Of a stretch of 64,000 nucleotides of DNA, positions 49,895-64,000 are shown piece by piece. Numbering within the stretch: the stretch's first letter is position 1; each line of letters begins with the position of its first letter. Position numbers and translations under genes: made by a program. A model generated the notes under the pieces. The model searched no databases and was not told where the DNA came from. It worked only from the letters and a program-made list of their open reading frames with translations. This DNA comes from Parcubacteria bacterium C7867-005 (GTDB lineage: Bacteria; Patescibacteriota; Minisyncoccia; Phycocordibacterales; Zambryskibacteraceae), in assembly GCA_001189165.1 (NCBI GenBank), contig LFCO01000003.1:126984-190983 (forward strand), in the 5' to 3' direction.

Positions 49895-50752
49895 ATGGAG
49901 TCGATCAAAAAGAATTGGAAAACTTGGCTGGTGGTAGCTCTAATTCTGGGGAATATCTGTGTTTGGGCGGAGATCTATGTTCGTAGACCCTCCAATCTCC
50001 TAAATGTTTATTTTTTTGATGTTGGCCAGGGCGACTCTATCTTCGTGGATACCCCAACACACAAACATATTCTCATCGATGGAGGATCAAATAATAGAGT
50101 GCTATCTATGCTCGGAGAGGTTTTACCTTTTGGTGATAGAAAAATAGATGTGCTTTTGGCCACCCATCCGGACCGTGACCACATAGGCGGTTTGTCTGAG
50201 GTGGTCAGTAGGTTTGATGTCAAAATATTTATCTCGCCAGGCATTGAATCACCAACTACAGTAGACGATGAACTTGATTTGAGTATACAAAGAGAGGGTT
50301 CACAGAGAATATTAGCTAAACGTGGTACAACCATAGATTTTGGGGACGGGGTGAAGCTCGTCCTCTTGTTCCCAGACAGAGATGTTTCAGATTGGGAAAC
50401 AAATGATGCTTCTATAGTAGCCAAGCTTGTTTATGGGGAACACTCCTTTCTTTTGACTGGTGATTCGTCCAAGAAAACAGAGTATTTATTGCTTGGCCTG
50501 AATGAAGAAGTGCTAGACAGTACTGTCTTGAAGGCGGGACATCATGGATCACGCACATCTACATCTTTGTCTTATGCCCAGGCGGTTAGTCCGGAATATA
50601 CGATAATCTCTGCTGGCAAGGGCAATTCTTATGGGCACCCACACAAGGAGGTGATAGATGTGTTAAATAAAATAGGTACAAAAATACTCTCTACTTTTGA
50701 ATTGGGAACTATTAGATTCAAGACAAACGGAGAATCTCTAGAGGTTATATAA
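49895..50752 (+). CDS. Membrane-anchored metallo-beta-lactamase-fold protein of the ComEC C-terminal type
   Basis: YFFDVGQGDSIFVDTP...LLATHPDRDHIGG...GDS...AGHHGS motifs of the ComEC/ComA MBL domain; start moved to internal Met to avoid overlap with the sod gene. Confidence 0.8.
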   Translation: MESIKKNWKTWLVVALILGNICVWAEIYVRRPSNLLNVYFFDVGQGDSIFVDTPTHKHILIDGGSNNRVLSMLGEVLPFGDRKIDVLLATHPDRDHIGGLSEVVSRFDVKIFISPGIESPTTVDDELDLSIQREGSQRILAKRGTTIDFGDGVKLVLLFPDRDVSDWETNDASIVAKLVYGEHSFLLTGDSSKKTEYLLLGLNEEVLDSTVLKAGHHGSRTSTSLSYAQAVSPEYTIISAGKGNSYGHPHKEVIDVLNKIGTKILSTFELGTIRFKTNGESLEVI

Positions 50753-50987
50753 GGCCAGCTTTTTTGAGGACAGAATGAGCACCACGTTTGTTTATGGTTT
50801 TGATCGCATCTGTAGAAAGTGTGAGGGTGAGCGTTTTCTTGAGTTCGGGTACATAAATACGCTTTTTCTGGAGATTTGGATACTTCCTGACGTTCCCGGT
50901 TGGATTAAACTGGGTAGCACGAGTCCTGTTGGAGTAGCCTCCACCTATCCTTGAACCCTTTTTAGTGACTGGACAAACCTTAGCCAT
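50745..50987 (-). CDS. rpmB: 50S ribosomal protein L28
   Basis: MAKVCPVTKKGSRIGGGYSNRTRATQFNPTGNVRKYPNLQKKRIYVPEL is canonical L28. Confidence 0.9.
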   Translation of the reverse strand: MAKVCPVTKKGSRIGGGYSNRTRATQFNPTGNVRKYPNLQKKRIYVPELKKTLTLTLSTDAIKTINKRGAHSVLKKAGLI

Positions 50988-51019
50988 AGTGGGAGTTATG
51001 CTAACATAAAACCACGAAC

Positions 51020-51637
51020 ATGCAACTCGAATTCATATTCCAGATAGCCATACTCATCATGTCTGTTGTTATCCATGAAGTTTCTCATGGGTATGCAGCC
51101 AGTCTCTTGGGGGACCAGACTGCCAGGTATCAAGGCAGGTTAACTCTCAATCCATTCAAACACTTGGAGATGGTGGGGTCGTTCTTTGTCCCACTTGTTT
51201 CTTATTTCTTTGGAGGTTTTATCTTTGGCTGGGCTAAGCCAGTACCCTATAACCCACACAATCTACGACCAGGTAGATGGTCTGAGGCAATAGTAGCCGG
51301 GGCTGGTCCAGCATCTAACCTTGTGCTGGCTATCATATTTGGCTTGGTTATTCGGTTTTCTGTGGCCTTGGGTATAGAAAATATGGCCTTTTTGCATGTC
51401 ACTGCCTTGGTGGTGTTTGTGAACCTGCTTCTCATGGTCTTTAACCTGGTCCCCATACCTCCACTAGACGGTTCAAAGCTACTTTTCGCCTGTTTTCCAC
51501 AGAAAATGTATCAAATTCGGGGTTTTTATGAGAGATACAGCCTGATACTGATACTTATCTTTATCTTCGTATTATGGGAATACATCGCCCCACTCGCCAC
51601 TTTAGCTTTCAGGATAATCACCGGCCTGTCCCTTTGA
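51020..51637 (+). CDS. Site-2 protease family (M50-like) intramembrane metalloprotease
   Basis: HExxH within the first TM (VIHEVSHGYAA); polytopic; LDG motif (PIPPLDGSKL). Confidence 0.75.
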   Translation: MQLEFIFQIAILIMSVVIHEVSHGYAASLLGDQTARYQGRLTLNPFKHLEMVGSFFVPLVSYFFGGFIFGWAKPVPYNPHNLRPGRWSEAIVAGAGPASNLVLAIIFGLVIRFSVALGIENMAFLHVTALVVFVNLLLMVFNLVPIPPLDGSKLLFACFPQKMYQIRGFYERYSLILILIFIFVLWEYIAPLATLAFRIITGLSL

Positions 51638-51704
51638 GGAACGTGTTGCTTGCGTTTTTGGGGGCTATTTAGTAGAGTAGTAGTCTCCTTTTGGAGGTTT
51701 TTTC

Positions 51705-52118
51705 ATGTCTACCATAAACCAGTTGGTCAAACGAAAAAGAAGCAAGGTCGCCAGGAAATCTAAGGCGATCGCTTTGACTCGTGGGTTTAATACAATTAAA
51801 AACCGACCAATCTACTTTAACTCTCCTTTCAAACGCGGTGTTTGTACCAAGGTGACTACAAAAACTCCAAAGAAACCTAACTCAGCTATTCGTAAAATCG
51901 CCCGTGTCCGCCTATCGAATGGCCATGAAGTAACCGCCTATATCCCTGGTGAGGGCCATAACCTACAGGAACACTCAGTCGTAGTTATCCGTGGTGGTCG
52001 TGTAAAGGACCTTGGAGTCAGATACACTATCGTTCGTGGACTTCTTGATGCACAGGGTGTAGAAAAGAGACGTCAGTCCAGAAGCCAATACGGTACCAAG
52101 AAACCAAAGGGTAAATAA
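51705..52118 (+). CDS. rpsL: 30S ribosomal protein S12
   Basis: Canonical S12 sequence ([10 protein letters not shown]...). Confidence 0.97.
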
Positions 52119-52126
52119 AATAAACC

Positions 52127-52597
52127 ATGCGACGCAAACTCAAAGCCAAAAAGCCTTTAACTCCTGATTCAGTTTATGAATCTGAAAAGATTACCAAGTT
52201 TGTTAACTATGTGATGCTCGAAGGCAAGAAGACTACTGCACGTGCAGTCGTCTATCGTGCTTTGGATGAGATTAAATCAAAAGCCAAAACAGAGAATCCG
52301 CTTGAGATTTTTGAGATGGCTTTGAAAAACACAGGTCCAACTATGGAAGTCAGATCAAGGAGAGTTGGAGGTGCAAACTACCAGATTCCTCGCGAAGTTA
52401 GACCAGAAAGGAGGCAGTTCCTCTCTATGAAATGGATCATAGAAGCTGCTCGTTTGAAGAAAGGTAAACCAATGCATGAGAAACTCGCAGAAGAAATCGT
52501 AGCCGCTTCAAACAACGAGGGTGATGCGGTGAAGAAGAGAGAGAATACTCACAAGATGGCAGATGCCAACAAGGCCTTCGCCCACTTCGCTTGGTAA
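52127..52597 (+). CDS. rpsG: 30S ribosomal protein S7
   Basis: Canonical S7; str operon order. Confidence 0.97.
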
Positions 52598-52664
52598 TTT
52601 TTTGTTAGAATTGTTTTATCCCCACGAGGGTTTTATTTTTTAGAGAATTATAAATTAATTATTT

Positions 52665-54830
52665 ATGGAACGAGATTATCCCCTAGAACGAGTTAGAAAC
52701 TTCGGTATTATCGCCCACATCGACGCGGGCAAGACCACAACCTCAGAGCGCGTGCTTTTTTATACTGGTGCTCAACACAGCATTGGTGAGGTGCACGAAG
52801 GGGAGACAACTACAGACTGGATGGAACAAGAAAGAGAGAGAGGTATCACCATCACCGCAGCAGCGATCACTTGTTTCTGGGCGCCTACGTATCTTTCAGC
52901 AACAGAGAGGTCCGATGCCAAAAAGAAATTCCGTTTTAACGTGATCGACACCCCAGGACACATCGACTTTACTGTAGAAGTGAAGAGATCCTTGCGCGTA
53001 CTCGACGGTGCAGTGGTGGTATTCGACGGCGTGGCCGGTGTTGAACCACAATCTGAAACTAACTGGCGTTATGCAGAGGACGCGAACGTTCCTCGTGTTT
53101 GTTTTATCAACAAGCTTGATCGAACTGGTGCATCGTTTGAACGTTCATACAAATCAATCCTCGACAGGCTTTCCAAGAAAGCAGTCCGTATGCAGATCCC
53201 TATTGGTGAAGAGGATAAGCACGAAGGTGTAGTGGATCTATTGAAAATGAAAGCGTACTACTTCGAGGGCAATATGGGTAATCAAGTTCTTGAGAAAGAC
53301 ATACCCGCAGACCTCCTTGAACAAGCAACTAAATACAGAGCAGAACTCGTAGAGAGAATAGTAGAGAATGACGAGGGACTCATGAATGCATACCTTGAGG
53401 GCAAGGAAATCTCTCTTGAAGCACTCAAAGAAACTCTCCGCAAAGCAGTGATAGGGAATAAAATTTTCCCTGTGTTCACTGGCTCTGCTTTGAAAAACAA
53501 AGGTGTACAGCTCGTACTCGATGCGGTTGTAGACTTCCTCCCATCTCCACTCGATATTCCTCCTGTAAAAGGTATCAATCCTGAAAATGGTGAAGAGGTC
53601 ATGAGGCATGCGAGTGATGCAGAACCTTTTGCTGCTCTCGCCTTCAAACTCCAAGCAGATCCATTCGTCGGACAACTTACTTTCTTCCGCGTGTATTCAG
53701 GAACAATAGAATCAGGAAGCTATATCTATAACTCCACCACTGGAGAGAAGGAGAGATTGGGTAGAATCGTGCGCCTCCAGGCGAATCAGCGCGAAGAAGT
53801 GAAAAAAGTTTTTGCCGGAGAGATCGCCGCAGCGGTGGGTCTAAAGAATGCTAAAACATCTCACACATTCTCTGATGAGACGAACGCAATCATCCTCGAC
53901 CAGATCACATTCCCTGAACCAGTTATCTCTTTGCGTATCGAACCAAAAACAAAAGCAGACCAAGAGAAAATGGGCTTTGCACTCAAGAGACTTTCGGACG
54001 AAGATCCAACTTTCAAAATCAAATCTGATTCAGAGACAGGAGAAACAGTGATCATGGGTATGGGTGAACTCCACCTTGAGATTATTGTTGATCGTATGAA
54101 GAGAGAGTTCAGCGTCGAAGCAAATGTCGGTAAACCACAAGTAGCTTATAAAGAAACGATCACCGGCGAAGCAGAAGTCGACAACAAATACGTCAAGCAA
54201 ACTGGAGGAAAGGGTCAGTACGGACACGTCAGGATCAAGATCAAACCACTTCCAAAATATGATCCAGAAGAAAAGGTTCCTAAAAATGCTCACCGAGAGG
54301 AAGGATTCGAGTTCATCGATTCTATCAAAGGAGGTGTTATTCCTCAAGAATTTATCCCTGCAGTAGAGAAGGGAGTGAAGGAAGCCATGGAACGCGGAAT
54401 ACTCGCAGGATACAAGATGGTGGACATATCTTGTGAATTGAATTTTGGATCGTACCATGATGTGGACTCTTCTGAAATCGCTTACAAGATCGCAGCTTCC
54501 CAGGCCTTTCAAGAGGCGGCCAAGAAGTCTAAACCAGTTATCCTCGAGCCAATTATGAGAGTCGAAGTAGTGGTCCCAGAAAAGTTCATGGGTGACATCA
54601 CTGGTAACCTTTCTGGTAAGCGTGGACAGATCGAAGCGATGGAAGATAGGGGAGACCTCAAGGTTATCCGTGCACAAGTGCCTCTATCAGAAATGTTCGG
54701 TTATGTGACAAACCTCCGTTCTATGACCGAAGGCCGTGGCTCTTCTACTATGGAATTCGATCACTATGCGATCGTGCCTCCAAACGTGGCTACAACTATC
54801 ATCGAACAGAGAACGGGAGGGAAGGCATAA
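52665..54830 (+). CDS. fusA: Elongation factor G
   Basis: G-domain motifs ([21 protein letters not shown]) and full EF-G length. Confidence 0.97.
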
Positions 54831-54900
54831 TTGATAAACTCAGGTAATTCTAGTAAACGGCCCAGCAGGGCTGTTTTTGCGATATTTAAGCTGAATATCC

Positions 54901-54929
54901 TTGACTTTGGGTATTTAGTATGCTATGAT
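54901..54929 (+). promoter_or_regulatory. Sigma70-like promoter P1 (TTGACT-17-TATGAT) driving the foreign GC-rich ORF
   Basis: ttgact 54901-54906, 17-nt spacer, tatgat 54924-54929; shares tccttgac and agtatgcta-Y-gat with the promoter at 63310. Confidence 0.5.
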
Positions 54930-54986
54930 TAGTGAGGATAGAGAAGTTCCGTTACATACCCCTTCCGGCCTAGAGCCAGAGAGCCC

Positions 54987-55634
54987 ATGAACCCGTTCCA
55001 GGCACTCCTCGAGAAGATCGACAGCAAGGTCGCCGAGGTCAAGCAGCTCTTCGCTGCGATCCTCCTGAACGCCGACATCGTCGTGGCCCGAGCCGAACTC
55101 GGGCGTGTCATCGAAGCCCTCAAGGGCTCGAACACGGCCGCAGACGAACGCAACGCGCGTTTCGTGGCTGCGGAAGCCGAGTGCGCGCTCGAGGAGCTCA
55201 ACCAGATGGAGCAGAAGTTCCTCATCTCCGCCTTCGCCGTCGACATGATGCGCAAGCGGATGGGCGGGCTCGATCCGGTCACTCTCGAACGCTACAAGAC
55301 GTCTCTGAGTGACCGGATCACCCGGTACGATGCCACCCGTTCGGGCAGGATGCCCGACACGTCCGAGCTCCGTCGCCAATTTCGTGCCTTCAAGGCAGAC
55401 ATGCGTCGGGCCGAGGCTGCGTCCATCCACTCGGTCGGGAAGAGAGCCCACAAGGCTCTTCTGACTCCCGAGATCGTGGGTGGTTCGACCGGCTCGAAGC
55501 CGGCCTCGCGCGAGAACAAGCAGCGGGCTCGAGACAAGAGCATCGCCCATCGCGCGATGATGGTCCGGACGAATCGCATCCGCTCCGGTGAGCAGGGCAA
55601 CAAGAAGGGAGTGAAGCAGAAGGCTTCGCGCTAG
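54987..55634 (+). CDS. Compositionally foreign (very high GC3) hypothetical protein, 215 aa, predicted helical with basic C-terminus
   Basis: ATG after a weak agagag SD; nearly every codon ends in G/C, unlike neighbouring host genes; own promoter and own strong terminator. The long antisense ORFs are the usual high-GC artefact. Confidence 0.6.
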   Translation: MNPFQALLEKIDSKVAEVKQLFAAILLNADIVVARAELGRVIEALKGSNTAADERNARFVAAEAECALEELNQMEQKFLISAFAVDMMRKRMGGLDPVTLERYKTSLSDRITRYDATRSGRMPDTSELRRQFRAFKADMRRAEAASIHSVGKRAHKALLTPEIVGGSTGSKPASRENKQRARDKSIAHRAMMVRTNRIRSGEQGNKKGVKQKASR

Positions 55635-55647
55635 ATTGGGGTAACAA

Positions 55648-55688
55648 GCCCCGCGGACGGTCCCACGGACCATTCGTGGGGCTTTTCG
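55648..55688 (+). terminator. Strong Rho-independent terminator ending the GC-rich cassette
   Basis: gccccgcg-gac-ggtcc-cac-ggacc-att-cgtggggc compound hairpin followed by ttttcg. Confidence 0.6.
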
Positions 55689-55710
55689 TATATAAAAGCC
55701 TTAAAAATCC

Positions 55711-55738
55711 TTGACTATTGCTCGCCCTTTGCTAAGAT
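55711..55738 (+). promoter_or_regulatory. tuf promoter (TTGACT-16-TAAGAT) with about 180-nt leader
   Basis: atccttgact...taagat; the same tccttgac -35 context as the two cassette promoters. Confidence 0.5.
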
Positions 55739-55920
55739 AGCCCTTACGCGTTATGTGCTGTTTTTCTTTGGCTCTTTGAGACTCAATCTTAATAGACCGA
55801 ATGAAATATGGCTTTATTGCGTACTTATCCGTTTGTTGATCAGAGAGAGCAAATGTTCTCGCGCGCTCTCTCGGTTCAAAAAACAATTTACTTAAATTAC
55901 TAATAAATCTTACTAATTTT

Positions 55921-57114
55921 ATGGCAGCAGAATTCAACCGTTCCAAGCCTCACCTCAACGTCGGTACCATCGGACACGTTGACCACGGCAAGACGACCCT
56001 CACAGCAGCTATCTTGAACGTGCTTCACCGCGCGGGCAAAGTAGCCACAGTGAAGTCAGTTGGAGATATCGACAAGAGTCCTGAAGAAAAGGCTCGTGGT
56101 ATCACCATCTCCCTTTCCCACAGTGAATATGAGACAGACGCTCGTCACTACGCACACGTCGACGCTCCTGGACACGCAGACTATATCAAGAACATGATCA
56201 CCGGTGCCGCTCAGATGGACGGTGCGATCCTCGTGGTTGCAGCGACTGACGGTGTGATGCCACAGACACGTGAACACATCCTCCTTGCAAAGCAAGTTGG
56301 AGTTCCAAAGATCATCGTTTTCTTGAACAAGTGCGACATGGTTCCTGATAAAGAACTTATCGACCTAGTCGAAGAAGAAGTACGTGATCTCTTGAAGAAA
56401 TATGAATTTGACGGAGAAAACGCTCCTATCATCCGTGGTTCAGGCCTCAAAGCCCTCGAAGCTACAGGTATAGATGACGAATGGTCAAAGAAAGTTCTTG
56501 AATTGACTGATGCTTTGGACACTTACTTCCCAATCCCTGTTCGTGAAGTAGACAAGCCATTCCTCATGCCTATTGAAGACATCTTCTCTATCGAAGGTCG
56601 AGGTACAGTGGTTACTGGTCGTATCGAAAGAGGTACTGTCAAAGTTGGTGAAGAAGTAGAAATCGTCGGTATCGAAGCTACACAGAAAACTACAGTTACC
56701 GGTATCGAGATGTTCAACAAACAACTCCAGGACGGTAGAGCAGGAGACAACGCAGGTATCCTCCTCCGCGGTGTTAAGAAAGAAGATCTACACCGAGGAC
56801 AGGTTATCGCCAAGGTTGGTTCAGTAACTCCTCATACAGAATTCACAGCAGAAGTTTACATCCTCAAAAAGGAAGAAGGTGGTAGACACACTCCATTCTT
56901 CACCGGATACAAACCACAGTTCTACATCCGTACAACTGATGTGACCGGAGAAGTGACTCTAGCCGAAGGTGTAGAGATGGTTATGCCAGGAGACACAGTG
57001 ACATTCAAGGTTAAACTTGTTGCCCCTGTCGCTCTCGAGGATCAGACCAGATTTGCTATCCGTGAAGGAGGCAAGACTGTGGGTGCTGGAGTGGTAACAA
57101 AGGTTATCGCCTAA
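55921..57114 (+). CDS. tuf: Elongation factor Tu
   Basis: [25 protein letters not shown] motifs; 397 aa. Confidence 0.97.
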
Positions 57115-57135
57115 ACAAAAGACTACGTACCTTAC

Positions 57136-57522
57136 ATGACCAAGGAAACACACAAAGAGGTAAAAGAGAAAAAGCCAAAGGCCAAAGCTACTAAAGTAGC
57201 CAAGACCGAGGACGGCGTAGGGATGCTCCGCATCCGAGTCCGGGCTTATGAATCTAAGATCTTGGATGTTTCTGTGAAGCAGATTATCGACACAGCACTC
57301 CGCTACGATGCAGAAGTGCAGGGACCGATACCTCTACCAACAGAGATCAAGAAATATACAGTGAACCGTGCTGCATTCGTATACAAAAACGCGCGAGAAC
57401 AGTTTGAGATGCGAATACACAAACGACTCATTGATATCAAGAATCCAACTCCAAAGATCATAGAATCTCTCACTAATCTCAGTCTTCCTTCGGGAGTGAA
57501 CATAGACGTGAAGCTGGTTTAA
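57136..57522 (+). CDS. rpsJ: 30S ribosomal protein S10 (with possible Lys-rich N-terminal extension; alternative start near 57223)
   Basis: [15 protein letters not shown]...GPIPLPT is the S10 core; the preceding 29 residues are Lys-rich. Confidence 0.9.
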
Positions 57523-57559
57523 TCCGGTTGATACAGCAAGACTGCATTCAGAAAATAAA

Positions 57560-58177
57560 ATGAAATTCCTTCTAGCCAAAAAAGTAAATATGACCCAGGT
57601 GTTCGATGAAAAGGGGATGACCTATCCAGTCACCGTCCTTTTGGCTACCCCGAACACGGTCATCGCACTCAAAGATGTGACCAGAGATGGATACAAAGCA
57701 GTTCAAGTAGGTTTTGGTGAAAAGCGCGAGAAGAATATCACTAAGCCAAGACTTGGACAGATGGGCGGTGCAAAACATTCTCATCTCAGAGAATACAGAA
57801 CGGATGATGCTGACTTGGCTCTAAAGGTCGGAGATGCACTCGACCTCACTCAATTCAAGGAAGGGGACACTGTATCTGTCATGGCAATCTCCAAAGGTAA
57901 GGGTTTCCAGGGCGTTGTTAAGAGACACAAGTTCAAAGGTGGACGCCGTTCACACGGTCAGAAGCACTCTGAGCGTGAGCCGGGTTCTATCGGTGGAGGA
58001 GGTCGTGCAGGAGGTCGTGTAGCCAAAGGTATGCGCATGGCTGGTAGAATGGGAGGCGATCGTGTTACAGTATCAAACCTAAAAGTGATCAAAGTTTTGC
58101 CTGAGACAGGCGAGATCATGATCCATGGCGCAGTCCCCGGACGAAGAGGAACAGTGGTAGAGATCAAATCAAAATAA
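57560..58177 (+). CDS. rplC: 50S ribosomal protein L3
   Basis: Canonical L3 (KGKGFQGVVKRHKFKGG). Confidence 0.95.
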   Translation: MKFLLAKKVNMTQVFDEKGMTYPVTVLLATPNTVIALKDVTRDGYKAVQVGFGEKREKNITKPRLGQMGGAKHSHLREYRTDDADLALKVGDALDLTQFKEGDTVSVMAISKGKGFQGVVKRHKFKGGRRSHGQKHSEREPGSIGGGGRAGGRVAKGMRMAGRMGGDRVTVSNLKVIKVLPETGEIMIHGAVPGRRGTVVEIKSK

Positions 58178-58182
58178 ATTTT

Positions 58183-58914
58183 ATGGAAGCCAAGGTCTAT
58201 ACAATCAAAGCCAAAGAGGCAAATACCATCTCACTCCCAGAGGGCCTCTTCGGTTTGAATTGGAATTCAGACTTGGTTCACCAGGTGGCTACTTCACTTG
58301 AATCTGCAAAGCGTAAGCCAATAGCTCATACTAAAAACCGAAGCGAAGTTCGCGGAGGAGGCAAGAAACCTTGGCAGCAGAAGGGTACTGGACGTGCTAG
58401 ACACGGTTCTATCCGCTCACCACTTTGGGTTGGTGGAGGTATAACTCACGGTCCAAGAAACGAAAAAAACTTTGACCGCAAGGTTTCAAAGAAAATGAAA
58501 GCCAAGGCTTTCTACACCATCCTCTCGAGGAAGTTCAAAGATGGCGAGATACTCTTTGTAGACTCTATCGCTCTATCTATGCCCAAAACCAAAGAAGCTA
58601 TCGGCGCACTCAAAGGACTCTCCGGTGTTAAGGGATTTGAAAATCTTTTCACCAAGAAAAACAATTCTGCTATCATCGCCCTCGCAGACAAAAACCAAAA
58701 TGTAGAACGCTCTATGTCTAACCTCGGTAACATGGAAGTGCTCGAAGCTCGTAACCTCCATCCACTTGCTTTGCTCAAATATAAATATCTCATCATCGAA
58801 AACCCAAGCAAATCACTCGAACTTCTCCCAGGAAATAATATTTTTGCCAAAGAGAAAGTAGCTAAGGTAGCAAAGAAGACAACTACTAAGGCCAAGAAAG
58901 TAGTCAAAGCATAA
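58183..58914 (+). CDS. rplD: 50S ribosomal protein L4
   Basis: KPWQQKGTGRARHGSIRSPLWVGGG motif. Confidence 0.95.
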   Translation: MEAKVYTIKAKEANTISLPEGLFGLNWNSDLVHQVATSLESAKRKPIAHTKNRSEVRGGGKKPWQQKGTGRARHGSIRSPLWVGGGITHGPRNEKNFDRKVSKKMKAKAFYTILSRKFKDGEILFVDSIALSMPKTKEAIGALKGLSGVKGFENLFTKKNNSAIIALADKNQNVERSMSNLGNMEVLEARNLHPLALLKYKYLIIENPSKSLELLPGNNIFAKEKVAKVAKKTTTKAKKVVKA

Positions 58915-58915
58915 T

Positions 58916-59209
58916 ATGAAAACTGCACCGATAAACAACACCACAGTGCTCAAAAGACCTCGTATCACCGAGAAGGCGGCTTTGAAGGCGGACAGTATGA
59001 ACGTTTACACTTTTGAAGTGAACAAAGATGCGACCAAGAAGCAGGTTATAGCCAGTATCAAAGATGCATACAAAGTCACTCCAAAGAGTGTCAGACTACT
59101 CGCGATCCCTCGCAAAGAAGTTTTCCGCAGGGGCAAGAGTGGTGTGACCGGTGGAGGCAAAAAAGCCTATGTGTACCTAAAGAAGGGCGATAAGATCGAA
59201 GTAATGTAA
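58916..59209 (+). CDS. rplW: 50S ribosomal protein L23
   Basis: Canonical L23; S10-operon order. Confidence 0.95.
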   Translation: MKTAPINNTTVLKRPRITEKAALKADSMNVYTFEVNKDATKKQVIASIKDAYKVTPKSVRLLAIPRKEVFRRGKSGVTGGGKKAYVYLKKGDKIEVM

Positions 59210-59213
59210 TTTT

Positions 59214-60053
59214 ATGAAACGATACAGACCAACATCTCCATCCAAAAGACAGGAATCAAAAGTTGAATTCAAAAAATTCATCACTAAATCCGAACCTTTA
59301 AAATCCTTGACCAAAGGTTTTCGTCGAGCGAACGGACGCAACAACACTGGGCGTATTACCACTCGCCACAAAGGAGGCGGACACAAGAGACTCTTTAGAG
59401 ATATAGATTTTACATACAACAAGATAGACGTGCCTTTCACTGTTAAGACAGTCGAATATGATCCAAACAGATCTGGATTCATCGGTCTCGTCGCTTATAA
59501 AGACGGAGAGAGACGATATGCACTTCTACACAAGAGTGCTCGAGTAGGAGATGTATACATCGCCTCAGAAACTGCACCGATCACTCCGGGGAACAGACTC
59601 CCATTGTCCAAGATCACTGTCGGTACTTTTGTTTACAACGTAGAGCTCAAGCCAAGAGGTGGAGCCAAGATCGCTCGTTCGGGTGGTAACTATGTAGAAG
59701 TTGTTGCCAAGGATGGTGGCTATGTAGACCTGAAGATGCCTTCAAGCGAAGTTCGCAAAGTTCTAGAGACTGCTTGGGCCACTGTCGGTGAAGTATCAAA
59801 TGATGAGAACAGACTGACTAACCTCGGCAAGGCGGGGAGGTCTCGTTGGCTCGGTATCCGTCCAACGGTCCGTGGTACAGCGATGAACCCAGTAGACCAC
59901 CCACACGGCGGAGGAGAGGGCAGACAGGGTCGAGGACGCAGAAGGGCTATCTCTATCTACGGCAAGCCAACAGGCAAAGGACAGAAGTCTCGCCGTTCAA
60001 AGAAATATTCAAACAAACATATTGTCCGCAGACGAAAAGTCGGCAAGAAATAA
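59214..60053 (+). CDS. rplB: 50S ribosomal protein L2
   Basis: GRNNTGRITTRHKGGGHKR and PHGGGEGR motifs. Confidence 0.95.
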   Translation: MKRYRPTSPSKRQESKVEFKKFITKSEPLKSLTKGFRRANGRNNTGRITTRHKGGGHKRLFRDIDFTYNKIDVPFTVKTVEYDPNRSGFIGLVAYKDGERRYALLHKSARVGDVYIASETAPITPGNRLPLSKITVGTFVYNVELKPRGGAKIARSGGNYVEVVAKDGGYVDLKMPSSEVRKVLETAWATVGEVSNDENRLTNLGKAGRSRWLGIRPTVRGTAMNPVDHPHGGGEGRQGRGRRRAISIYGKPTGKGQKSRRSKKYSNKHIVRRRKVGKK

Positions 60054-60059
60054 AAAACA

Positions 60060-60085
60060 AAACTCGCCCTCAGGCGGGTTTTTTG
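60060..60085 (+). terminator. Rho-independent terminator immediately after rplB
   Basis: ctcgcc-ctca-ggcggg hairpin followed by tttttt. Confidence 0.55.
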
Positions 60086-60098
60086 GTATATTCAAGGC

Positions 60099-60620
60099 AT
60101 GCAACAACTTGATAAAAAAGCAGTCTGGTTATTTTTTATAGGCTCTATGTTTGGATGGGTCTTCTTTGGAGTTTTTCTCTCTATCTGGGGGGCCAGTATC
60201 TCTGGTGAGATGTTTAGCGGTTCGATGACTTTTAACGGACAGCCAGTGAACCCGTTAGCGTTTATGTGGTTTGCAGTAAAAACTGTTGTCGCTCTGCTCT
60301 TAATCCTCTCTTATATTTGGGCACGTCTCTCGTATCGTTTTTATAGATACGAACTCAGAGATAATGGATTCAGGAAGGAGTCAGGCGTGATCTATAAAAG
60401 TTATGTCACCATACCTTATGACCGTATCCAGAATGTAGATGTGTATCGAGGAATCCTCGCACGCATGCTTGGGCTTTCTGATTTACATATCCAAACAGCG
60501 GGAGCAGGTACAATGCTCGGCGAAGGTAGACTACCAGGCCTTTCACATGAGGTCGCAGAACAACTCCGAGATGAACTCATCAACCGTTCACGTGCCTCTA
60601 GAACGGGCCAGGGTTTATAG
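60099..60620 (+). CDS. Bacterial PH-domain (bPH_2 / YdbS-like) membrane protein
   Basis: Two N-terminal TM helices then PH-like region (YRYELRDNGFRKESGVIYKSYVTIPYDRIQNVDVYRGILARMLGLSDLHIQTAG). Confidence 0.75.
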   Translation: MQQLDKKAVWLFFIGSMFGWVFFGVFLSIWGASISGEMFSGSMTFNGQPVNPLAFMWFAVKTVVALLLILSYIWARLSYRFYRYELRDNGFRKESGVIYKSYVTIPYDRIQNVDVYRGILARMLGLSDLHIQTAGAGTMLGEGRLPGLSHEVAEQLRDELINRSRASRTGQGL

Positions 60621-60624
60621 TTGA

Positions 60625-60778
60625 CTTTCCTCAAATTTGGTATAAAGTAGGGCACGTAAGGTCAAAGACAGAAGGTGGCGCAAGCCTTAATCATGCCTTC
60701 CGAGATCACTCTCAAACGCACTTCGGTGTAGTCGAGACCTTATAGAGGTCGTTTTTTTTGTTCGTTAATTTATAAATT
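60625..60778 (+). promoter_or_regulatory. Ribosomal protein L10 leader region with promoter-like TTGACT...TATAAA and an attenuator hairpin
   Basis: Structured 150-nt leader before rplJ ending in gacct-tatag-aggtc followed by eight T, consistent with the L10(L12)4 autoregulatory leader of Gram-positive-type genomes. Confidence 0.5.
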
Positions 60779-61267
60779 ATGGCAATATCAAGAGCCAAAA
60801 AAGGAGAGATAGTAGACAAGCTTCAAGGAGCCCTCAAGGGTGCCAAGTCGCTCGTCTTCGTCAACTTTCATGGCCTCAAGGTTTCTGATGCCACAGCCAT
60901 GCGCCGTTCCCTCAAAGCAGAGGGCGTCTCATACGCAGTGACAAAGAAATCTTTGACCAAACGAGTATTAGCTGATGAGAAATTCGAAGGCACTTTGCCT
61001 GAACTCACCGGCGAACTCGCGATGGCTTGGTCAGACGACCTGATCGCACCAGCGAGAGGCGTCTATGGTTACCAAAAGAAATTCCCAGAGGGCCTCAAGA
61101 TCCTCGGCGGAGTTTTCGAAGGCCGCTACATGACTAAGGCAGAGATGGAAGGAATCGCCACGATCCCTACCACCAATGTTCTACGAGGAATGTTTGTTAA
61201 CATCATAAATTCTCCAATACAGCGTTTCGCGATCGCGCTCGGTCAGATTGCAGAGAAGAAAGCTTAG
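60779..61267 (+). CDS. rplJ: 50S ribosomal protein L10
   Basis: Canonical L10 N-terminus (KKGEIVDKLQGALKGAKSLVFVNFHGLKV). Confidence 0.95.
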   Translation: MAISRAKKGEIVDKLQGALKGAKSLVFVNFHGLKVSDATAMRRSLKAEGVSYAVTKKSLTKRVLADEKFEGTLPELTGELAMAWSDDLIAPARGVYGYQKKFPEGLKILGGVFEGRYMTKAEMEGIATIPTTNVLRGMFVNIINSPIQRFAIALGQIAEKKA

Positions 61268-61293
61268 TCAGTTATCAGTAACAAATTAATACA

Positions 61294-61698
61294 ATGGATG
61301 AAACAAAAGTTGCTACAGAAGAAGTAGCAGTCCCTGCCAAGTTCGCGAAGATCGTGAAGGAGATCGAAGAGATGTCCGTCCTCGATTTGAACGAATTGGT
61401 CAAAATATTCGAAGCTAAGTTCGGAGTTTCTGCAGCCGCAGTCGCAGCAGGCCCTGCTGCAGGTGCCGCTCCAGCCGAAGAGGCCAAGAGCACAGTAGGC
61501 GTAGAGCTCACTGATGGTGGTGCGAATAAAATCGCGATCATCAAGATAGTCAAAGAAGTCCTCGCCCTTGGATTGAAAGAGGCCAAGGACCTCGTAGATG
61601 CAGCCCCTTCTATGCTCAAAGCAGATATGAAGATGGAAGAAGCTACAGAGCTTAAGAAGAAAATCGAAGAAGCCGGAGGCAAGGTTACTTTCAAGTAA
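61294..61698 (+). CDS. rplL: 50S ribosomal protein L7/L12
   Basis: Ala-rich hinge and C-terminal domain ([27 protein letters not shown]...[13 protein letters not shown]). Confidence 0.95.
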
Positions 61699-61720
61699 TA
61701 AACCCCCTAATTCTAGAATC

Positions 61721-61747
61721 AAAAACCCTGCTATTGCGGGGTTTTTG
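61721..61747 (+). terminator. Rho-independent terminator after rplL
   Basis: ccctgc-tatt-gcgggg hairpin followed by ttttt. Confidence 0.55.
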
Positions 61748-61809
61748 ATTGGACTACGCACCTTTTGGGCGAGGTAGTCAATTAGTGCAGGAGGGGCTTT
61801 CTATGTAGA

Positions 61810-62379
61810 ATGGGCAAAAAGATGAAATCGGTATCCCACATATTTGGAGGAGAGGCCAAGGTCAAGATAATGCGTCTTTTCATATTTAACCCAGAGACTA
61901 TTTATGACACGAATACTGTCTCTGAACGCTCCCAAGAAAATCGAACATTGGTTGCGCGCGAACTCCGCAAACTCGGACAGTCTGGACTCATTAGAAAAAA
62001 GAGTAAAGGTTGGGCTCTAAACCCTTCGTATCCGTACATCAAAGCACTAGAACATTTCTTTATTGATGCTAGTCCGATAACTGAAAAAGAAATCGTAAAG
62101 AAATTATCCAGAGCGGGGACAATCAAACTGGTTTTAATTTCTGGAGTTTTCCTACACGACACCGAGGCGAGGGTAGATTTATTGGTAGTAGGGGATCATC
62201 TAAAGAGGGGTTTGCTCGTCCATGCCATAGGCAGCATAGAGGCAGTTTTAGGAAGGGAGATACGCTACGCTTCCTTTGAGACAGCAGATTTTCAATACAG
62301 ATTAGGGCTATACGACAAGCTAGTTAGGGATATCCTCGACTTTAACCACAAAAAGATCGTCAACAAGCTCGCAGTGTAG
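61810..62379 (+). CDS. Hypothetical protein with possible N-terminal winged-helix region
   Basis: 189 aa; RLFIFNPETIYDTNTVSERSQENRTLVARELRKLGQSGLIRKK looks like a wHTH; no catalytic motif recognised. Confidence 0.45.
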   Translation: MGKKMKSVSHIFGGEAKVKIMRLFIFNPETIYDTNTVSERSQENRTLVARELRKLGQSGLIRKKSKGWALNPSYPYIKALEHFFIDASPITEKEIVKKLSRAGTIKLVLISGVFLHDTEARVDLLVVGDHLKRGLLVHAIGSIEAVLGREIRYASFETADFQYRLGLYDKLVRDILDFNHKKIVNKLAV

Positions 62380-62509
62380 CTTTCCTATCCACAGGCCATC
62401 TCAAAAAACCTTTAAATACTAGTGCGAGGTGTATAATAAGTTATACCCCTATTTGAGTGGTAACAATTATAAGTAAAGTGCATTTGCACGAGCTTTCAGT
62501 CAAGAATAT

Positions 62510-63205
62510 ATGATTATGAATACTTGGGGACAGATTTTGACAGCTTCGTTCCAAGATCTTTGGTACGGAGTTATTAACTTTGTTCCAAACTTGGTAGTCG
62601 CTATTATCATCGTTGTTTTAGGATGGCTCATCGGCGCACTCTTTGGTCGAGCTATCTGGCAGGTGTTCCGTTCACTTCGCGTGGACGAAGCTCTTCGCCG
62701 AGCAGGATTTGAGACATTCCTCCGCAGAGGAGGCTTGAACCTCGATTCTGGTGCTTTCATCGGTGGTTTGGTCAAGTGGTTTGTGATCTTGGTTTTCCTC
62801 ATGGCTTCATTCGAAGTTTTGGGTCTAGATCAAGTTAACCTCTTCCTCAAAGATGTGGTTATCGCTTACCTTCCTCGTGTGATCGTAGCTGCCCTCATAC
62901 TCCTAGTTGGAGGTGTGATCGGTGACATAACAGATCGTGTTGTTGTCACTGCAGCTAAGACAGCCGAAGTTAGATCAGCTCATTTCTCTGGCACAGTAGC
63001 CAAGTGGGCAATCTGGATTGTCGCTCTCCTCGCCGCTCTTTCACAGCTCGGCATTGCAGCAGCATTCAGCCAGACACTCTTTACTGGAGTAGTTATCGCC
63101 ATCTCTCTTGCCCTCGGCCTTTCATTCGGCCTCGGTGGTCAAGAAGCAGCAGGAAAGTTCCTAGAACGTCTTCGTGGAGACATGAGTGACAAGAACCACG
63201 GCTAA
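62510..63205 (+). CDS. Conserved TM-helix-repeat membrane protein (two internal repeats)
   Basis: Two similar TM pairs each followed by an amphipathic basic segment (GALFGRAIWQVFRSLRVDEALRRAG... and GDITDRVVVTAAKTAEVRSAHF...); host-like composition. Confidence 0.55.
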   Translation: MIMNTWGQILTASFQDLWYGVINFVPNLVVAIIIVVLGWLIGALFGRAIWQVFRSLRVDEALRRAGFETFLRRGGLNLDSGAFIGGLVKWFVILVFLMASFEVLGLDQVNLFLKDVVIAYLPRVIVAALILLVGGVIGDITDRVVVTAAKTAEVRSAHFSGTVAKWAIWIVALLAALSQLGIAAAFSQTLFTGVVIAISLALGLSFGLGGQEAAGKFLERLRGDMSDKNHG

Positions 63206-63240
63206 CCAGAGGTATCAGCTAGATAATACCGAGGATAGCT

Positions 63241-63270
63241 CAAAACCCCCGCTCTGGCGGGGGTTTTGTT
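63241..63270 (+). terminator. Rho-independent terminator
   Basis: cccccgc-tctg-gcggggg hairpin followed by tttt. Confidence 0.6.
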
Positions 63271-63309
63271 ATATGGCTCTATGTATGGATATTTGGTTCA
63301 TAAATCTCC

Positions 63310-63338
63310 TTGACAAAGGGGTTAGAGTATGCTACGAT
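63310..63338 (+). promoter_or_regulatory. Sigma70-like promoter P3 (TTGACA-17-TACGAT) driving the second foreign GC-rich ORF
   Basis: ttgaca 63310-63315, 17-nt spacer, tacgat 63333-63338; spacer/-10 nearly identical to P1 at 54901 (gg.t..ag-agtatgcta-Y-gat). Confidence 0.5.
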
Positions 63339-63402
63339 CAATACAGATAGGCGAATGCCTACTGCAGTACCTCTCATCTCTACTCCTTCAAGGAGCTCTT
63401 AC

Positions 63403-63982
63403 CGTGACGAGCATCGCACCGCAGGTTCGCATCGGCATCAATCTCGCCGATGAGGAGCACATCCTGTTCAAGATCACCCTCTCCAACAAGAGCCTGGTTC
63501 CCGCGGGCATCCGCGAGATCGAGCGCGAGTCGGACAAGGTCATCGACCGGCGTAACGCCGACAAGGCGATCGCCGCAGGCAACGCTCGTGTGGCGACGGT
63601 CGGACGAGTTCGTCCGGGACGTGTCGATACCGGCAAGCCGATCTTCCAGAACGTGGAGCGCGTGCGCGTTTCGCTCGTCCGGGGAATCCTGGCTCGCAAG
63701 GGCTTCCGCCTCGCCGACGCGCACTTCTTCGTTCGGAACGACGGCAAGGCCGTGCTCGTCCTCTCCCTCATGAAGGGACGGGACACGCTGGAGCTCCCGC
63801 GTGCGACGGTCGAGGCGATCCGGGCCATGGCCCGTGACAACGTCTGGACCGCGGACATGTGGGAGAACGTCGACAACGCGACCCTGAACTTCCGTGCGCG
63901 TCAGCAGGGTTCGGCGAAACAGTCGATCACGGTCGACGATGACATGCTCATGATGGTCGACGGCGACCTCGCGGTCGAGTAG
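63403..63982 (+). CDS. Compositionally foreign (very high GC3) hypothetical protein, about 193 aa, GTG start
   Basis: aaggag SD 8 nt upstream of GTG at 63403; codons almost uniformly G/C-ending; stop TAG at 63980-63982. Sequence after the stop continues to the window end, so a downstream partner gene cannot be excluded. Confidence 0.55.
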
Positions 63983-64000
63983 AGGAAGACGCCCGTACAT

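Follow-up and report, generated by a model that had tools for sequence, protein, structure and literature searches.

A GC-rich gene convergent with truD in Parcubacteria bacterium C7867-005: a conserved family gene whose composition may be maintained by selection on mRNA structure

Compositional islands in bacterial genomes are routinely read as horizontal gene transfer (HGT), and Lawrence and Ochman are said to have given an amelioration model for horizontally acquired atypical genes. In situ xenologous gene displacement within conserved gene arrays was reportedly described by Omelchenko et al. in 2003 (Genome Biology 4:R55). On the side of messenger RNA (mRNA), the Escherichia coli ompA leader and the Bacillus 5' stabilisers represent transcripts stabilised by 5'-terminal stem-loops and 3' hairpins. 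Here we compare with these systems a gene, called X below, lying at the end of a 64-kb stretch of DNA of Parcubacteria bacterium C7867-005 (the window, to which positions refer), together with a second open reading frame (ORF) of the same window, orfA (54987-55634). The identity of X and the extent of the feature are held with high confidence. We give a probability of roughly 45% to the whole statement, mechanism included, that X is a native gene kept rich in guanine and cytosine (GC) by selection on the structure of its mRNA. The genome (564 kb, 42% GC, from Hanford sediment) has been described in a paper that mentions neither X nor orfA (PMC4508563).

A preceding reading of the window, made by a model from the letters and called here the sequence-only reading, had reported a GTG-initiated ORF at 63403-63982 encoding about 193 amino acids (aa). 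The GTG-initiated ORF is present, its true start being at 63404 and its product 192 aa long; the frame from 63403 contains 4 stop codons.

63404..63982, + strand: X coding sequence, 192 aa, GTG start, member of an unnamed Parcubacteria family

The GC content of X is 0.644, with 0.668, 0.409 and 0.855 at codon positions 1, 2 and 3, which agrees with the G/C-rich third positions seen in the sequence-only reading; for host genes, GC at third positions (GC3) is 0.45-0.54. Compared with 1231 background windows of 579 nucleotides (nt) (0.425 +/- 0.029, maximum 0.511), the GC z-scores were 7.4 for X and 7.0 for orfA, and these are the only two ORFs with GC3 above 0.7 in the 64 kb. A comparison of tetranucleotides between X and orfA, which had been proposed beforehand, gave a correlation of r = 0.77, and relative synonymous codon usage gave r = 0.87, to be set against -0.35 to 0.24 with host genes in both cases, codon usage alone reaching 0.23 at most. 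CGG, used for none of the 154 host Arg codons, accounts for 24% of them in each of X and orfA, and CCG, TCG and ACG, at 6-8% in the host, reach 44-80% in the two ORFs. The amino-acid composition is GC-shifted too, with R/(R+K) = 0.70. That CGG codons might be undecodable was an idea dropped because the window contains a transfer RNA (tRNA), tRNA-Arg(UCG), by which they are decodable.

A word-indexed search of 5.8 billion proteins retrieved X itself and one protein with 46% identity. The profile built from these two sequences was run against 1.84 billion cluster representatives and recovered 177 representatives of 160-320 aa at E <= 1e-3, of which 126 passed E <= 1e-10, with matches reaching E = 1e-46. 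The named members are all annotated "hypothetical protein" and all belong to Patescibacteria, Parcubacteria or Minisyncoccia. The X family is undescribed, fast-evolving and restricted to Patescibacteria, the restriction resting on the named subset and on genomic contexts, as most of the 177 are unnamed metagenome proteins.

The sequence past the window edge was taken from the source contig (a 199-kb Joint Genome Institute (JGI) contig holding the window; L001 18994-19060, L numbers being our designations of loci). Composition drops to 0.35-0.45 GC about 60 nt past the X stop, where truD follows on the minus strand, and then rpsS-rplV-rpsC. The truD gene, which encodes the tRNA pseudouridine-13 synthase, is placed tail-to-tail with X, and this convergence was found in 15 of the 15 distinct genomes with DNA (C7867-005, SRR22388172, RYN_400, AAB365, ABSE76, KW790, three further lineages, L018 and five found through truD), as well as in one JGI contig known from gene calls only. 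The spacer between the two genes is 60 nt long in C7867-005 and 54-130 nt elsewhere, and it holds a hairpin. The ascertainment bias of finding loci through X had to be removed, so a metagenome search was made with TruD only: 6 of 6 loci (5 distinct) had an X homologue immediately downstream in convergent orientation. The genomes closest to C7867-005 by truD, namely RYN_400, L017 and L019 (67% identity each), all have X at the locus. The X-truD linkage is a strong and conserved feature.

High GC is also a property of the whole family. In all 15 genomes X exceeds truD in GC3, by 0.10 to 0.46 (mean 0.27), and at each locus X has the highest GC3 of its neighbourhood, or nearly so. Regressing X GC3 on host GC3 gives a slope of 0.41 and an intercept of 0.53, which denotes a weak dependence, the extreme outliers being C7867-005 (0.85 vs 0.48) and the AT-rich hosts L019-L024. 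Between orthologues, the four-fold third positions of conserved residues differ at ~45-80% of sites (~65-80% in 7 of 9 pairs), and four-fold sites are near saturation in truD as well. Because of this near-saturation, synonymous sites must have turned over many times, yet they are G/C in every lineage. A GC3 excess found throughout the family at saturated sites cannot be explained by a single recent import: the high GC of X is a family property kept up in each lineage, and not the trace of one such import. Either a persistent force acts on X, or it is repeatedly replaced from an unsampled GC-rich pool. The highest GC3 among sampled Parcubacterial background genes was 0.78, below the 0.855 of X and the 0.93 of the ORF occupying the slot upstream of X in L018.

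The folding of the X mRNA was compared with that of synonymous-codon shuffles in which the protein, the codon usage and GC3 were kept fixed, using z-scores of the minimum free energy (MFE) over 30-40 shuffles. In 10 genomes the z-scores were -2.1, -0.25, -1.5, -3.4, -1.2, -2.7, -3.6, -5.8, -4.5 and -6.3 (mean -3.14), the C7867-005 gene having -2.1. By comparison, 28 host-gene segments had a mean z-score of -0.31 (standard deviation (sd) 1.2), a difference significant at p = 1e-4 in a Mann-Whitney test. The orfA mRNA scored -4.8 against codon shuffles, and dinucleotide shuffles pointed in the same direction as codon shuffles. X and its sister orfA in C7867-005 are extreme examples of GC-rich, over-folded genes.

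The signals surrounding X, and the open frame facing it, are as follows.

63310..63338, + strand: X promoter, -35 TTGACA, 17-nt spacer, extended -10 TGCTACGAT (TACGAT with TG)
63345..63403, + strand: X 5' leader, about 59-65 nt, with a 5'-proximal hairpin and a Shine-Dalgarno site
63983..64000, + strand: start of the X 3' untranslated region (UTR), hairpin 1 GCCCG-TACAT-CGGGC running from 63991 to about 64005
63241..63275, + strand: intrinsic terminator of the upstream mechanosensitive-channel-like gene (62510-63205), inverted repeat and T-run
63380..64000, - strand: antisense open frame, not a gene, a by-product of GC3-rich codon usage

The signals that had been read from the letters upstream of X were all recovered. 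A perfect inverted repeat of 12 bp (CAAAACCCCCGC/GCGGGGGTTTTG, 63241-63268) and the T-run after it make up the terminator, which insulates the X unit from the channel-like gene. The promoter TTGACA-17-TACGAT carries a TG extension; its sigma-70 score of 10/12 is equalled but not exceeded elsewhere in 50000-64000. The pattern TTGAC-N15-TGnTAnnAT occurs 3 times in the window, in front of orfA, tuf and X, where 0.26 would be expected, and its conservation extends to the promoters of X homologues in other genomes. The 65-nt leader is of normal composition (~46% GC), and the Shine-Dalgarno sequence AAGGAG (63390-63395), 8 nt before the GTG, can pair with CTCCTT at 63384-63389. Starting 2-3 nt from the predicted 5' end, the leader hairpin TAGGC-GAAT-GCCTA (63348-63361) is present in the predicted minimum-energy fold. 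GATAGG-N-CCTA is found at the same place in the leaders of the RYN_400 X, the L018 X and the L017 slot ORF, and the 5'-proximal hairpin recurs in 4 leaders, with one compensatory variant, TAGGA/TCCTA. RNAalifold run on 7 leaders returned no consensus structure because the alignment was poor. We do not claim a leader riboswitch or attenuator, since single-leader folds are no better than those of shuffled sequences.

Past the window, hairpin 1 is followed by hairpin 2 (CCGGTCAC-TTCACA-GTGATCGG) and a T-run, which ends at ~64044, where the convergent truD ends; the L002 X has an equivalent two-hairpin 3' UTR. GC-richness is limited to the X coding sequence and the 3' hairpins, and the promoter resembles the native tuf promoter. 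An Rfam cmscan of the 20.6-kb locus at E <= 1 gave no match inside the X unit, nearby matches falling only on the upstream terminator. Gene callers start X at an ATG inside its promoter and obtain a 217-aa product, which is why an exact search for the 192-aa product returned no match; X is listed by JGI and Logan sources and not by NCBI. The antisense frame is codon-aligned with X and can close only at the sense codons TTA, CTA and TCA. The GC pattern over its codon positions is reversed, with 0.83 at position 2, and the frame was rejected as a real gene on account of stops in 7 of 9 X orthologues.

These elements can be assembled into a tentative scheme. X is a single-gene expression unit made of a promoter, a short leader, an ORF and a terminator; it would be native, and its synonymous sites would be selected for a GC-rich and strongly folded mRNA. 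In an AT-rich genome, strong mRNA folding would be reachable only through raised GC. Combined with the near-consensus promoter, the 5'-proximal hairpin and the 3' hairpins, the folded mRNA would make a long-lived or translationally throttled transcript, an effect of selection on mRNA life or translation that we infer.

Several observations weigh against this scheme. The channel-like gene (62510-63205) has a z-score of -3.3, with 0 of 40 shuffles folding as strongly, and is the only such host control. The L002 X shows no folding excess (-0.25), and the leader fold energies, with z-scores of -1.3 to +0.45 against shuffles, are not better than expected. The support from folding comes from predicted MFE z-scores, not from conserved RNA structure or covariation. 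In two genomes the GC3 of X is not exceptional for its neighbourhood (z 0.5 and 0.7), and the GC3 excess of C7867-005 (+0.40) is among the largest of the family. Finally, the identities of X and of truD between genomes are uncorrelated (Spearman 0.07), which fits exchange as well as it fits saturation of a fast-evolving protein.

The orfA gene is a second unit of the same design as X and is located between fusA and tuf.

54901..55695, + strand: orfA unit between fusA and tuf, promoter 54901-54929, coding sequence 54987-55634, terminator 55648-55690

It corresponds to NCBI AB200_02595 and encodes 215 aa (GC3 0.82) with a basic C-terminal tail; its AlphaFold2 single-sequence model is all-helical, at low confidence (predicted local distance difference test score, pLDDT, of 55). 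A common promoter architecture had been proposed for X and orfA from the letters, and it holds: the pattern is exact and the leaders start alike. The promoters and the first 15-20 leader nt of the two units (the orfA leader starts GGATAG) are similar and resemble those of the RYN_400 X (TATGCTAYGATYARTRMGGATAG). The KW790 ORF directly upstream of X is an orfA homologue (BLASTP E = 5e-9), and no other homologue of orfA was detectable. Two side observations concern this locus. A 13-nt direct repeat, AAtATCCTTGACT / AAAATCCTTGACT (54894-54906 and 55704-55716), covers the -35 regions of orfA and tuf and brackets the orfA unit; it may be the promoter consensus, or a remnant of the event that brought the unit in between fusA and tuf. 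GC3-rich genes are prone to misannotation in this genome: the Logan assembly of this organism has as a gene a 252-aa frame antisense to orfA (L003 1587-2345 minus, window 54915-55673).

Among the alternatives, one that we consider unlikely without being far-fetched is repeated displacement within the phylum. X, and with it the variable ORF slot upstream, would be swapped among Parcubacteria while staying next to truD, the C7867-005 allele having come fairly recently from a GC-richer relative or element with its codon usage not yet ameliorated. Consistently, the identity matrices of X and truD are uncorrelated and nearest relatives differ: C7867-005 is nearest to RYN_400 by truD (67%) and to SRR22388172 by X (47% vs 34%, where truD gives 50% vs 67%). 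This mismatch is however equally expected of a protein that evolves fast and whose identities saturate at 30-45%. The codon usage common to X and orfA looks foreign (CGG, CCG, TCG, ACG; r = 0.87), the amino-acid composition is GC-shifted (R/(R+K) = 0.70), the orfA locus differs from that of its KW790 homologue, and the slot upstream of X holds unrelated ORFs, all of which would suit exchange. Random donors would nevertheless give offsets of both signs where the observed offset is positive in 15 of 15, and the GC-rich islands surpass in GC3 every Parcubacterial background that was sampled. Moreover, the best allele among 5.8 billion proteins has 46% identity, there are no mobility genes, tRNA gene or insertion-like flanking repeats, and between the lineages with the most similar X the flanks have diverged too far to permit homologous replacement. 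Displacement would also leave unexplained the excess of mRNA folding at fixed codon usage.

Selection on mRNA structure could also be part of something wider. We regard as doubtful, though worth stating, the joint reading in which X, orfA and similar ORFs form a "composition-buffered" gene class, held at ~55-65% GC in genomes of 32-55% GC since their mRNA must be strongly folded, as for rRNA and tRNA genes, and in which X is a partner of TruD with a new fold, acting on tRNA or another RNA. The purpose of such a class could be an extreme mRNA longevity in slow-growing, host-dependent cells.

A mutational or repair bias specific to the gene, acting without any selection on RNA, such as a hot spot of GC-biased conversion or a transcription-associated bias, appears improbable to us. 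It would account for a family-wide GC3 excess confined to the transcribed coding region, and it would be compatible with the strong X promoter and with the indications that X is exchanged or evolves rapidly. In bacteria, however, biased conversion is reported to have effects of only a few percent, and an excess of +0.3 to +0.45 in GC3 is too large in comparison. The tuf gene, which has the same promoter type as X, has a normal GC3 of 0.455, and the leader, although part of the transcript, lacks an equal GC enrichment. Such a bias also does not predict folding beyond that of codon shuffles of the same composition.

The sequence-only reading had favoured a foreign gene from a high-GC donor, with the block continuing past the window edge and the last 18 nt hinting at a partner gene. 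A donor outside the lineage is now very improbable. The extreme GC and GC3 and a codon usage typical of a genome of ~65% GC speak for it. The last 18 nt are nevertheless the start of the 3' UTR hairpin, and the extension downstream that this reading had called for shows host GC (0.35-0.45) after ~60 nt, with truD and rpsS next and no further GC-rich gene. The profile search places X in a family whose named members are all Patescibacterial, and every genome examined has X at this locus, in convergent orientation to truD. Nothing was found in viral contigs or viral structure predictions, and X has a promoter and leader of host type. That reading had named beforehand two outcomes that would speak against it, namely a return to host composition downstream without GC-rich ORFs and a homology placing the protein in a native family of the lineage; as both were found, the foreign-block reading mostly fails.

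An artefact, whether an assembly chimera or a real gene antisense to X downstream of truD, has a negligible probability and is refuted by the X model, the orthologue stops and synteny: although antisense 63380-64000 is open and a gene caller did choose the antisense ORF for orfA in the Logan assembly, 15 other assemblies have X in this position, stop codons break the antisense frame in 7 of 9 orthologues, and the sense translation yields a model with pLDDT 95 and profile matches to E = 1e-46.

We also analysed the protein itself. Across 60 aligned members, K23, R70, D75, N155 and N162 are invariant, and the family motifs are GRVRxGRVDTG and W-x-N...T-x-N-F, the loop having the general form R-x-x-[VA]-D-[TS]-G. 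The AlphaFold2 model with pLDDT 95 was built from 60 sequences; the protein, ~190-240 aa long, is predicted to be mixed alpha/beta, and its fold has no counterpart among solved structures. The fold search with this model gave no match, nor did the sequence profile search of the PDB with the family. Scans of X and orfA with Pfam, NCBIfam, PHROG and PADLOC returned nothing significant, and Pfam matched none of the 60 aligned members. PADLOC, which covers known anti-phage defence and toxin-antitoxin components, had no match for X, orfA or the slot ORFs. No X homologue was detected in the viral-contig scan or among BFVD viral structure predictions, and a metagenome scan with the X alignment gave no confirmed match.

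Two variants of the family were recognised. The X proteins of KW790 (L010 8001-8570) and L019 (3202-3777) are circular permutants that start at the GR(V/I)RxGRVDTG loop, and their C-terminus is the segment that is N-terminal in other members (ILVKFFFTN...IPAGI...D..HA). This permutation agrees with the model, in which the N-terminal strand and helix are packed on the C-terminal sheet. In AT-rich hosts, a subfamily carries an N-terminal C-x9-C-x9-12-C-x2-H extension, with ADSG replacing VDTG:

L020 5529-6200, L022 5465-6121, L023 5500-6207 and L024 527-1210: extended X subfamily, truD GC3 0.27-0.38

This extension matches DUF5763 and zf-primase below the Pfam cut-offs (15.2 vs 26.3 and 14.5 vs 28.8 bits). 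The loop GRVDTG recalls what we take to be the G-R-x-D motif of pseudouridine synthases (TruA, RsuA), a likeness which fold searches do not back. Taken together, the Arg/Asp loop, the truD neighbourhood and the CCCH extension suggest a small RNA- or nucleotide-binding factor that may be tied to TruD. We infer, from sequence and gene order, that X would act with TruD, on tRNA or another RNA. Convergent genes are not co-transcribed, so this functional tie is read from the neighbourhood only, and any specific function of the X protein is proposed with low confidence. The literature on truD neighbourhoods, codon usage and abundant hypothetical proteins in these bacteria provided nothing relevant. 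Loss of truA in these genomes has been discussed (PMC4508563).

On its other side, X is found in four contexts: the channel gene in a split S10 operon, a tRNA synthetase or a kinase, polA, or ORFs that belong to no known family. In other genomes, unrelated ORFs that are also GC-rich fill the slot upstream of X; the slot ORFs of L006, L017 and L018 are not detectably related to orfA, that of KW790 being the only one related. GC-rich ORFs of unknown family beside X include L018 746-1354 (GC3 0.93), L020 6448-7647 (0.70) and L023 7284-8798 (0.56), where host genes have GC3 of 0.27-0.50, and high GC may be shared by a small group of genes specific to the lineage. The truD gene tends to have the lowest GC3 among its neighbours in L011, L017, L010 and L008 (0.30 vs 0.52 in L017, 0.49 vs 0.65 in L011), so that the conserved pair joins a GC-rich gene to an AT-rich one.

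The S10 operon of C7867-005 is split between rplB and rpsS by ~5.5 kb (59214-64000, to ~65500; L004 5886-12559). The insert contains a bPH_2 membrane protein, rplJ-rplL, a 189-aa ORF without Pfam match, the channel-like gene and X, with truD on the opposite strand, and the same split arrangement is found in RYN_400, KW790, L017 and L018. A 12-mer, CTAGATAATACC, lies at 63219-63230, 10-20 nt past the channel-gene stop. All five genomes of the clade (C7867-005, RYN_400, KW790, L017 and L018) have it unchanged despite TruD identities of 61-68%; it sits in the loop of a GCTA...TAGC hairpin, and may be a conserved RNA element or protein-binding element. Upstream of rplJ, at 60644-60767 (L004 7316-7439), the ribosomal protein L10 leader of Rfam gives a sub-threshold match over the full model length, with 34.6 bits (gathering score 44). 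Further along, between rplE and rpsH (L004 15925-17465), two Pfam-negative ORFs of 183 and 330 aa, with GC3 of 0.65 and 0.56 vs ~0.48, occupy the usual place of rpsN, and no S14 gene was called there.

These results bear on how compositional outliers are interpreted, as a gene lying more than 7 sd from its background turns out to be a conserved, syntenic gene of the lineage. HGT screens and annotation in reduced Patescibacterial genomes would misclassify X. The family is new, its structure is predicted with confidence and lacks a known fold relative, and it is strictly linked to truD, which makes X a concrete target for studies of tRNA modification in organisms from which other modification enzymes have been lost. 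If the reading based on mRNA structure is true, X would be a testable example of synonymous-site selection so strong that it outweighs the AT pressure on the whole genome.

We finally compared X with known systems. Like HGT islands, it shows a sharp jump in GC, GC3 and codon usage, and the X and orfA loci share one atypical signature; among features looked for in genomic islands, an atypical composition is present (z = 7.4; GC3 0.855). In contrast, X is a single gene with a host-type promoter at the same locus in all relatives, and its distribution is not patchy, a truD-convergent homologue being present in 15 of 15 related genomes. No homologue from an outside donor was seen among the named members, in viral contigs or in BFVD. 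There are no mobility genes or insertion repeats, the neighbours of this single gene being the channel gene, truD and rpsS; no tRNA gene lies near X, and no flanking repeats were found beyond matches to the promoter consensus. The anomaly has the same sign in 15 genomes despite saturated synonymous sites, and a GC-rich X in an AT-richer host is the reverse of the usual AT-rich foreign DNA. X is also distinct from an integron gene cassette, as it has its own promoter, only terminator hairpins after the ORF (no dedicated attC model was run) and no array. What it does show are the traits of the truD-adjacent family: a full-length profile match, the conserved motifs and a short spacer holding a hairpin.

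The case of xenologous displacement is closer, since X keeps its position while its phylogeny disagrees with that of its neighbours. It differs in that no donor clade was identified for X, and displacement alone would not produce the one-sided GC offset or the mRNA structure excess. With pseudouridine synthases X has in common an invariant Arg...Asp loop, which presumably recalls their motif, and the linkage to a pseudouridine synthase gene; neither the catalytic-domain fold nor a Pfam domain of that superfamily was found in X. The likeness to DUF5763 and the primase zinc finger is limited to sub-threshold matches of the extension in the X proteins of L020-L024, an extension absent from the C7867-005 X. 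Finally, relative to the mRNAs stabilised by terminal hairpins, X, known from predicted folds only, differs in that its whole coding region is GC-enriched and over-folded, and it resembles them in its hairpin near the predicted 5' end, its strong 3' hairpins and its strong promoter.

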